A stretch of 64,000 nucleotides of DNA. Origin: Escherichia phage JP4. Made by a program: the position numbers and the translations under genes. This document shows positions 14,756 through 15,493 of this stretch, piece after piece; position 1 is the first letter of the stretch; every line of letters starts with the position of its first letter. The notes beneath the pieces were generated by a model. The model saw nothing but the letters and a program-made list of their open reading frames with translations. It did no database searches and was not told where the DNA came from. The DNA lies in sequence record PQ330092; one strand, written 5' to 3'.

Positions 14756-15493
14756 TTAGACTGAATTGTTAGGATAATATCTCCCACGTCCCCATATTAT
14801 TCGCACAGCACCACCACCAGCAGCCGTATAAGAAAAATTATCCCATATACTACCACCACCACCATACATCTTACCAGCACCACCACTACCAGCACCACCA
14901 TTATATGAACCATCGTATCTACCGCCAATACCATTAGCACCTTGAACAATGATACCAGTACCACCACCCGTACCAATGAACGAGGTATTATAGAATGCAC
15001 CACCACCACCGCCGCCGCCAGCACCATTTTCACCAGTGATTGCATCTCCGTTACCACCTTTACCAGTGTAGCCACCAGCACCACCACCAATGACTGCACC
15101 ACCACTTACACCAGCGTTGCCCCCATTACCACCACCATCATTAATAGCGTTAGCAGCTTTCCCACCTAGTCCACCAACCCTATATTCACCAGTGAAGCTA
15201 ACACATAGTTTTTCAGTTCCACGATATAAACCGTTTTCAACTGCTGTAGTAGTGTTGGGATGTGTAAGAGAAACACTTAAGTACTCACCACCAGAAACCG
15301 GAATATTATTACGCCACGATAAGCCGCCACCAGCACCACGTTGACCACCCGGCGAAATAACACATACTGATATTTCGGTAACGCCAGCAGGAACTGTAAA
15401 TTGTGTTGTTCCTATTGTCGTGATTAATTGTTCACCATGTGGCTTATATTCAATTTTATTCCCGAACTTAACCATTCTTCCAAAAGGTAACAT
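14756..15493 (-). CDS. glycine-rich domain protein carrying the MLPF tag (paralog #8, body swapped)
   Basis: Starts MLPFGRMVKFGN, then TQFTVPAGVTEISVCVISPGG, long Gly runs and ..GGGAVRIIWGRG. No RCC1 motifs. Confidence 0.8.
   Translation of the reverse strand: MLPFGRMVKFGNKIEYKPHGEQLITTIGTTQFTVPAGVTEISVCVISPGGQRGAGGGLSWRNNIPVSGGEYLSVSLTHPNTTTAVENGLYRGTEKLCVSFTGEYRVGGLGGKAANAINDGGGNGGNAGVSGGAVIGGGAGGYTGKGGNGDAITGENGAGGGGGGGAFYNTSFIGTGGGTGIIVQGANGIGGRYDGSYNGGAGSGGAGKMYGGGGSIWDNFSYTAAGGGAVRIIWGRGRYYPNNSV

Follow-up and report, generated by a model that had tools for sequence, protein, structure and literature searches.

A 12-residue N-terminal tag shared by a glycine-rich protein and unrelated RCC1-like, Kelch, and lectin-type proteins of jumbo phages

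The capsid-targeting sequence (CTS) of phage T4, carried by the internal proteins IPI, IPII, and IPIII and by Alt, is a short N-terminal peptide that is removed by the prohead protease after a glutamate, with the cargo located inside the head. The head-binding domain of P22/Sf6-type tailspikes and the branched tailspikes of CBA120, G7C, and RaK2 use folded trimeric N-terminal anchors of 60 to 150 residues. Among glycine-rich proteins, the solved structures combine a TNF-like domain with a polyglycine-II (PPII) glycine-rich domain and recognize a host receptor (PMC9608196; PMC13243192), and it is in these two papers that the PPII-bundle class is described. Here we describe a glycine-rich open reading frame (ORF) in a 64,000-nucleotide stretch of Escherichia phage JP4 (record PQ330092; referred to below as the window), the first 12 codons of which specify a peptide, the tag, that also heads the RCC1-like proteins coded on either side of it. 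The tag is a genuine portable module, found on many unrelated bodies in the genomes of jumbo phages.

The source region is that of an Asteriusvirus, a jumbo Escherichia coli myovirus of the 121Q/PBECO4/phAPEC6 type, and the stretch from 14000 to 16800 matches 42 phage records, the best at 96 to 98% identity. The product of the ORF at 14756-15493 begins MLPFGRMVKFGNKIEYKPHGEQLITTIGTTQFTVPAGVTEISVCVISPGG, has the C-terminal end GGGAVRIIWGRGRYYPNNSV, and is 29% glycine; the ORF readout, with its ATG start, confirms the length of 245 amino acids and both termini given in the first-pass annotation, which was made from the sequence alone. The start ATGTTACCTTTTG.AAGAATG is present in 13 copies at 7290-21634, all on the minus strand, versus 0.03 expected by chance, and these represent 11 RCC1-like paralogs, a 52-residue remnant, and the glycine-rich gene, whose tag start is the eighth from low coordinates, in keeping with its earlier designation as paralog #8. 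A Pfam scan of the glycine-rich product finds no family at E<=1, and it therefore has no RCC1 motifs, as had been claimed; specifically, RCC1, RCC1_2, and WD40_RLD have no match in it, and the seven-bladed propeller of the RCC1-like paralogs is absent, with the RCC1-like neighbors matching PF25390, PF00415, and PF13540. It matches PHROG 4474 (function unknown) at E = 3.5e-67 and not PHROG 4219, to which the RCC1-like paralogs belong. Orthologues are present in 17 Asteriusvirus records (16 distinct genomes, with 121Q entered twice), one copy each and at 84.7 to 99.6% identity, and those in GenBank with an identical start (121Q gp243, G17_00077, and UB AXC36547) are labeled hypothetical protein.

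The tag family has the consensus MLPF-x-R-[MLI]-[VLIMF]-x-Y-[GA]-N. The MLPF set was defined as MLPF-x-[RP]-hydrophobic-hydrophobic-x-[YF]-[GA]-N directly after a Shine-Dalgarno (SD) sequence, and MLPFGRMVKFGN, with an SD 4 nt upstream, is a member. Clustered by BLAST without their first 20 residues, the 95 unique tagged proteins make up 10 families; chance matches aside, every one comes from the record of a jumbo phage, a contig of jumbo size, or a phage-like array. The Pfam classes of the tagged bodies are RCC1, Kelch, an RCC1 and Kelch fusion, and Laminin_G_3, and several bodies have no Pfam match. In IMG/VR, a degenerate DNA scan locates the tag in six jumbo contigs (348 to 378 kb) and otherwise only in one 13-residue chance ORF; JGI metagenomes yield further phage arrays and bodies with the tag, and a scan of 596 Gb of bacterial genomes gives chance matches only, lacking an SD. 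One IMG/VR contig (3300031417_000002; 355 kb) codes at L011:6413-8416 on the minus strand for a 667-residue protein in which the tag MLPFQPLLVYGN is followed by an RCC1-like and then a Kelch propeller in one chain. In Pectobacterium phage CBB (Mimasvirus), the tag is on Kelch proteins (CBB_550, CBB_552, and CBB_554), Laminin_G_3 proteins (CBB_548 and CBB_551), and proteins with no Pfam match (CBB_536, CBB_537, CBB_549, and CBB_553). Two further CBB genes are outside any array: CBB_144, a glycine-rich homolog that begins MLPFSPLIVYGNK and sits between nrdD and nrdG, and CBB_247, a tagged ConA-like protein coded in the head/baseplate module. The 10 body families, these non-array genes, and conservation across genera bear out the first-pass proposal that the tag is portable. 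We also note that two metagenome contigs, OEQX01000370 and OERM01000014 (L034 and L059), have arrays of seven to nine RCC1-like genes with a tag subvariant, MLPFVRMFDYGN, and that another array (L029) is headed by a glycine-rich orthologue (MLPFGRMIKYGNEIEYKPHG).

Conservation is concentrated in the tag, with the 11 RCC1-like paralogs sharing a mean pairwise identity of 81% over its 12 columns versus 22% in the bodies, and 39% in the best 12-column window elsewhere. No sequence is alignable between the glycine-rich ORF and the RCC1-like paralogs beyond about residue 13, and within the tag the glycine-rich copy has F at position 10, versus Y in every other copy and orthologue. Counted from the ATG, the DNA block common to the cassettes covers about -70 to +36/+40, with random identity beyond, and the shared unit therefore ends precisely where the tag ends. 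Between genera, the tag residues are kept although third codon positions vary and the DNA upstream is unrelated; codon variants in Mimasvirus and other jumbo-phage contigs include CCT/CCA/CCG, TTT/TTC, TAC/TAT, and GGG/GGA/GGT. On this pattern of substitution, we take the tag to be under selection at the protein level. Structure prediction places it outside the folds: in the model of the glycine-rich protein, tag residues 1 to 9 have predicted local distance difference test (pLDDT) scores below 50, and in that of an RCC1 paralog (pLDDT, 76.6), residue blocks 1 to 10 and 11 to 20 score 53 and 66, the first blade beginning at residue 22. The idea that the tag is a part of the propeller or sandwich fold is rejected, as it is outside the fold in both models and heads unrelated bodies, and the earlier claim that it does not belong to the propeller stands.

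Tagged proteins are strongly enriched in virions. Mass spectrometry (MS) of CBB particles detected 55 of 554 proteins, and these include nine of the 11 tagged CBB proteins whose genes were found in this analysis (CBB_144, 247, 536, 537, 548, 549, 551, 552, and 553; hypergeometric P = 2e-8), among them the glycine-rich homolog, CBB_144, for which 5 peptides cover 34% of the sequence. Virions of phAPEC6 hold eight RCC1-like paralogs (gp003, 005, 006, 007, 009, 010, 549, and 551). Of these, gp007 (30 kDa; 3 peptides) is the orthologue of the RCC1-like copy at 10209-11018 (minus strand), which is cut short at 269 residues, the next ~380 bp having no long ORF, and the presence of gp007 in particles fits incorporation that depends on the N-terminal tag and not on an intact propeller. 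GAP32 gp001 is also reported as a virion (structural) protein. The peptide-level supplement of the CBB paper lists virion peptides within or directly after the tag, namely LFEYANVIIPPNYK (CBB_536, residues 7 to 20), YANVIVEYATK (CBB_548, residues 10 to 20), LLQYGNK (CBB_553, residues 7 to 13), and IAPYQILYEMK (CBB_144, residues 14 to 24, preceded by K13); the tag is therefore translated and kept in mature particles in these homologs. These peptides, with the conservation of residues despite codon change, also dispose of the tag as an untranslated leader, a possibility that the first-pass annotation had itself raised as one that would undo its reading. Judging from its homologs, the glycine-rich product of the window is presumably a virion protein as well.

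The body of the glycine-rich protein is a new, divergent member of a known fiber-tip fold family. Database searching identifies 178 homologs of the ORF, many carrying PF21722 ('Gly_rich_2'), a model that spans the whole body; two of them, P0037 and P0038, pass it at 39 and 33 bits against a cutoff of 24.3 bits, and the query matches these two at E = 5e-16 and 1e-15, with a BLASTP alignment to P0038 of 37% identity over residues 31 to 245. Profile searching, which had been recommended as a check, thus reaches PF21722 by way of the homologs and not directly, and the model is reached at E<=0.01 by only 3 of 33 aligned relatives. All of the family motifs (W-x-VP-x-GVT, NDGGGNGG, GGGAGGY-G-GG, and the C-terminal VRIIWG-x-x-R-x-[FY]P) are present in the window protein, and R231, I232, W234, G235, and P241 are invariant or nearly so in an alignment of 76 sequences. 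An AlphaFold2 model built on 76 homologs (pLDDT, 92.4; predicted template modeling score, 0.88) has a β-sandwich at about residues 20 to 100, a glycine-rich region, and a closing C-terminal strand, as expected of a TNF-like sandwich with a PPII bundle; structure prediction, the other recommended check, accordingly gives a sandwich and a glycine-rich bundle with the tag outside the fold. The structures that the model matches are phage fiber or brush proteins and the ALK glycine-rich domain, and BFVD gives 86 viral matches at E<=0.001, including phage 'glycine-rich domain-containing proteins', a 'baseplate component', syn9 Gp38, and proteins of the giant viruses megavirus, moumouvirus, and Edafosvirus. 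A sequence-profile search of PDB with the ORF gave a chance match only. The resemblance noted earlier to glycine-rich domains of phage fiber-like and giant-virus proteins is therefore substantiated by the PF21722 homologs, the fold matches, and the BFVD matches. By analogy with the solved relatives, the body most likely binds a structure on the host surface.

Homologous bodies in other large phages, of the ConA-like, 549-type, RCC1-like, and glycine-rich kinds, carry a second class of N-terminal tag, M-x-E-[LIM]-[LIM], often with G within three or four residues. The start M-[LI]-E-[LMIT]-[LIM] is present in 32 of the 76 aligned sequences and in most of the glycine-rich homologs that lie outside the Rak2-like group. 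Cronobacter phage EspYZU08 (Seunavirus) has it on a Laminin_G_3 protein (MEELLLVNTQ; 35% identity to CBB_548, E = 5e-30), a protein with no Pfam match (MQELLLIGNKG; 33% to CBB_549, 2e-24), an RCC1-like protein (MFEMLLGGKAP; 31% to the window paralog at 15566-16729, 3e-8), and a glycine-rich protein (MLEILTIGADA; 45% to the 14756-15493 ORF, 9e-14), and these alignments with MLPF-tagged proteins all begin at residues 15 to 21, right after the tags. Serratia jumbo phage PCH45 likewise has the second tag on two or three different bodies, as does a metagenomic phage contig of 120 kb. Because homologous bodies occur under different tags, the bodies constitute a shared kit in which the N-terminal label varies by phage lineage. 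In Certrevirus, the MS-confirmed virion protein CB7_37 of Pectobacterium phage CB7 (413 residues; L028:32766-34007) is coded directly after the tail-fiber gene CB7_36, has the tag-like start MIPFAIIGFVGGVTPVP, and gives an alignment to a window RCC1-like paralog that begins at residue 1 (E = 7e-7). CB7_55, also MS confirmed, begins MQEMMIVT. Two other candidates were rejected, with CB7_30 being an unrelated baseplate protein and not a tagged ConA-like homolog, and the six ConA-like matches in Burkholderia phage FLC9 being C-terminal domains of larger untagged proteins.

The organization of the array is summarized in Table 1. Upstream of most copies, including the glycine-rich gene, are a hairpin (GCCAGTAC...TACTGGC plus a T-run), the AT-rich box TATTAAATATAGTATAATGAAT, and the SD AAGGAGGG, and this common 5' block upholds the earlier description of the same cassette context. 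The copies at 9828 and 12287 directly follow the previous gene without hairpin and AT-rich box (9829-9900 and 12288-12296), and the array thus mixes single-gene cassettes and two-gene units. Terminator-like hairpins number 21 in the array, versus 7.0 +/- 2.3 expected, and the phage G17 record annotates the equivalent hairpins as terminators; sigma-70 promoters are not enriched in the array (72 found versus 75 expected). An ATAAATA motif is reported for CBB structural genes (PMC5259590), and by likeness to it, TATTAAATA may be a late promoter. The glycine-rich gene has only RCC1-like paralogs as neighbors, with no adjacent fiber or chaperone gene.

Table 1. Coordinates of the glycine-rich gene, its cassette, and the array in the window, and of second-tag genes in other phages
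Feature	Position	Strand	Basis or remark
Remnant of tagged paralog, 52 aa (MLPFRRIITSSKK...)	7155..7310	(-)	Low-coordinate array edge
Six tagged RCC1-like paralogs	7382..14684	(-)	Tag ATGs 8587, 9828, 11018, 12287, 13471, 14684
Terminator-like hairpin ending glycine-rich gene	14728..14750	(-)	Hairpin scan
Complete ORF, 245 aa + stop, ATG start	14756..15493	(-)	N-terminal tag, then glycine-rich body
Conserved C-terminal strand AVRIIWGRGRYYP, residues 229-245	14759..14809	(-)	76-sequence alignment
Glycine-rich motifs (NDGGGNGG, GGGAGGYTGKGGNG, GGGGGGG), residues ~101-228	14810..15193	(-)	Predicted polyglycine-II bundle type, by fold match
β-Sandwich (TNF-like jelly roll), residues ~20-100, motif W/F-x-VP-x-GVT	15194..15436	(-)	Predicted model
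Linker, residues 13-19 (KIEYKPH)	15437..15457	(-)	Low-to-intermediate model confidence; block 11-20 mean pLDDT 71; first strand from residue 20
Tag MLPFGRMVKFGN, codons 1-12	15458..15493	(-)	Start shared with paralogs
Conserved 5' block with AT-rich promoter-like box TATTAAATATAGTATAATGAAT and SD	15494..15535	(-)	Cassette alignment
SD AAGGAGGG, 4 nt upstream of ATG	15498..15505	(-)	Read from sequence
T4-type late-promoter-like TATTAAATA	15520-15528	(-)	Likeness only
Terminator-like hairpin GAATGCCAGTACTTGATACTGGCATTT + T-run, ending upstream paralog	15536..15562	(-)	Hairpin scan
Five tagged RCC1-like paralogs	15566..21634	(-)	Tag ATGs 16729, 17992, 19233, 20412, 21634
Second-tag genes, Cronobacter phage EspYZU08 (Seunavirus)	L019:26191-26832, L021:30673-31323, L021:34352-35515, L021:37365-38102
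Second-tag genes, Serratia jumbo phage PCH45	L026:2666-3310, 4339-4992
Second-tag genes, 120-kb metagenomic phage contig	L023:10001-10717, 14060-15031, 16829-17698

Variation is evident at individual copies. Phage UB has longer, split 'DNA condensation protein' ORFs at the place of the 7155-7310 remnant. One orthologue of the glycine-rich gene, P0002 on a 26.7-kb Logan contig, has the called start MNKGGN-KIEYKPHG; compared with the window at 15458-15520, this start is the promoter and ribosome-binding-site (RBS) box ATGAATAAAGGAGGGAAT read as codons and joined to codon 13, and it fits a 37-nt deletion between two GGGAAT repeats (at the RBS end and in codons 11 and 12), with loss of the tag and the true start. 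P0002 is also short of 39 amino acids in the glycine-rich region. Elsewhere, the window contains an exact head-to-tail duplication with a period of 20,114 bp (26792-46905 and 46906-64000; 17,095 compared bases, 0 mismatches), the second copy of which is cut off by the window end. It has short ORFs only and no tRNAs, and is probably the long terminal redundancy of this group, written twice in the record; the terminal repeat of CBB is 22,456 bp.

It is reasonably likely that the glycine-rich ORF codes for a two-module, late-expressed virion protein, in which an adhesin-like body is joined to an uncleaved docking peptide that serves interchangeable modules on one acceptor. The TNF-like β-sandwich and PPII bundle (residues ~20 to 245) would be the body, and residues 1 to 12 would be a flexible, uncleaved docking peptide, the same on RCC1-like, Kelch, ConA-like, and other lectin-type proteins of Rak2-like jumbo phages. 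This peptide would plug each module into one common acceptor site, probably on the tail, fiber, or 'hair' apparatus, hair-like appendages being described for CBB and phAPEC6; the binding modules displayed by the phage would therefore be mixed and exchangeable. Bodies may be shuffled in the array by way of homology arms, namely the 3' terminator and the conserved 5' block with its terminator, promoter box, SD, and tag codons. We infer that the tag has an address or adaptor function, with docking its probable role, and that the bodies bind ligands. External display is suggested by the fold classes, by the low-charge, S/T/N/G/Y-rich composition of the tagged bodies (isoelectric point [pI] 5 to 9, ~6% K+R), and by the position of the CB7 gene.

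An alternative is that the tag is recognized by a nonvirion partner, such as an assembly chaperone, a protease of phage or host (the tag being an N-terminal degron), or a localization factor, that controls folding, timing, or turnover, with presence in the particle being incidental. Both tag classes do begin with Met and then bulky hydrophobics (ML/MI/MF), the ClpP subunit of CBB (CBB_104) is itself in virion preparations, and Pam3 gp24, the nearest structural relative, requires a dedicated chaperone (PMC9608196). We consider this unlikely, given the strong enrichment of tagged proteins in virions, where the tag is kept, and given the absence of a chaperone-like gene alongside the cassettes; one chaperone serving at least five unrelated folds would also seem less economical than a docking site.

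The main rival in considering mechanism is the T4 model, in which the tag would act as a CTS of the internal-protein type and the tagged proteins would be packaged inside the head, possibly as an 'inner body' or for ejection. The arrangement follows the logic of the CTS: unrelated bodies, coded in a hypervariable locus of cassettes whose 5' ends are conserved, share an N-terminal peptide of about 10 residues. CBB codes for a T4-like prohead protease (CBB_255, Peptidase_S77), several CBB tags have L/I/M-x-E at positions 7 to 9, and the phAPEC6 authors suggested that RCC1-like proteins might build an inner body. However, the Glu cleavage site is not conserved, as every window copy has K, N, or T at position 9 and several CBB copies have Q, K, or V there; where CBB_536 does have a Glu, the virion peptide LFEYANVIIPPNYK spans it uncleaved, and the peptides from CBB_548 and CBB_553 likewise show tag residues in mature particles. 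The bodies, with lectin- or tail-fiber-type folds and the composition given above, are not small basic DNA-binding proteins, and the CB7_37 gene adjoins a tail-fiber gene. Capsid targeting is therefore quite improbable. Least probable is that the tag is functionless, either a passenger of cassette recombination or gene conversion with the promoter-RBS block or kept for mRNA-level reasons such as translation initiation context: the 5' block is nearly identical in DNA within the array, synonymous sites included, and the glycine-rich gene is an obvious insertion between RCC1 paralogs, but the peptide is conserved in Mimasvirus and other jumbo-phage contigs despite different upstream sequence and codons, it is conserved in the non-array genes CBB_144 and CBB_247, and a second, different tag behaves likewise in other lineages.

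Several observations weigh against a docking peptide for externally displayed modules. The tagged Kelch proteins CBB_550 and CBB_554 were not detected in CBB virions, and MS detection of the other tagged proteins could in part reflect copurifying abundant late proteins. In the phAPEC6 record (MK817115), the glycine-rich ORF (7325-8056) is unannotated, with only the 303-nt gp004 given there at 7716-8018, and an MS search of the phAPEC6 proteome, if made against that annotation, could therefore not have reported the glycine-rich protein. Within the array, tag codons hardly differ in DNA sequence, and local conservation is thus due in part to recent duplication or gene conversion. The window protein falls below the gathering threshold of PF21722 (no match at E<=1), and its external location is argued by analogy of fold. 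PDB has no homolog of the tagged ConA-like or 549-type proteins, and the ConA-like, 549-type, and RCC1 profiles match no phage virion chain there; the cryo-electron microscopy papers on phi92 and on the related phage phiTE do not mention such tagged proteins.

A bolder extension, which we offer tentatively as a possibility short of probable, is that large myoviruses have a miniature cohesin-dockerin-like system, in which an N-terminal peptide of 5 to 12 residues alone suffices to load a shared lectin-like kit (RCC1 and Kelch propellers, ConA-like domains, and glycine-rich PPII bundles) onto one acceptor. It covers both MLPF-x-R-x-x-x-YGN of the Rak2-like jumbo phages and M-x-E-L-L of Seunavirus, PCH45, and many uncultured phages. 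If so, each particle would show a mixed, rapidly exchangeable repertoire of adhesins, perhaps on the 'hairs' of CBB and phAPEC6, and the tag would serve directly as a handle for phage display or cargo loading on jumbo phages. The 11 to 13 'DNA condensation / RCC1' genes of 121Q-like phages would code for tag-addressed virion proteins with binding-type folds and not for chromatin regulators, and the 12-residue peptide would offer a testable handle on the nature of the hair-like appendages and particle decoration. Lineage-specific N-terminal tags on a shared adhesin kit are suggested as a general principle across large myoviruses. The gene and fold family are already known, but the tag system, with one peptide on about ten body families, virion retention, and a second tag class, appears to be undescribed, no account of it having turned up in the literature that could be searched.

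The closest relatives of the body are the Pam3 tail fiber gp24 (PDB 7YPX/7YFW), the Bxb1 tail wing brush gp33 and tail spike gp29 (9D93), the S16/T2-type gp38 adhesins, and the ALK/LTK glycine-rich domain, with which the window protein shares a sequence identity of only 16 to 24%. Its predicted sandwich and PPII bundle correspond to the architecture at the receptor-binding end of Pam3 gp24, Bxb1 gp33, and the gp38-type adhesins. The attachment differs, in that Pam3 gp24 docks through a long N-terminal α-helical trimerization domain and the window protein has a 12-residue peptide; a dedicated chaperone gene is adjacent to Pam3 gp24, whereas neither the window ORF nor CBB_144 has the adjacent fiber or chaperone gene of the tail-fiber/adhesin type. 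Members of PF21722 and PHROG 4474 share motifs and homology with the window ORF, but most begin M-[LI]-E-[LM]-L or otherwise and not MLPF. Conversely, the RCC1-like paralogs (PHROG 4219, 'regulator of chromosome condensation / DNA condensation protein') have the same tag, cassette, and array but a completely different fold. The tailspike anchors are alike in that a conserved N-terminal attachment is combined with exchangeable C-terminal binding modules, several per virion, and unlike in size and order, the tag having 12 residues predicted to be disordered in the monomer. With the T4 CTS, the tag has in common a short N-terminal peptide that acts independently of the unrelated bodies behind it and lies in a polymorphic cassette locus, where conserved 5' ends favor shuffling. 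It differs from the CTS in that the protease-site Glu is not conserved, the tag peptides persist in mature virions, and the bodies are of adhesin and lectin type.

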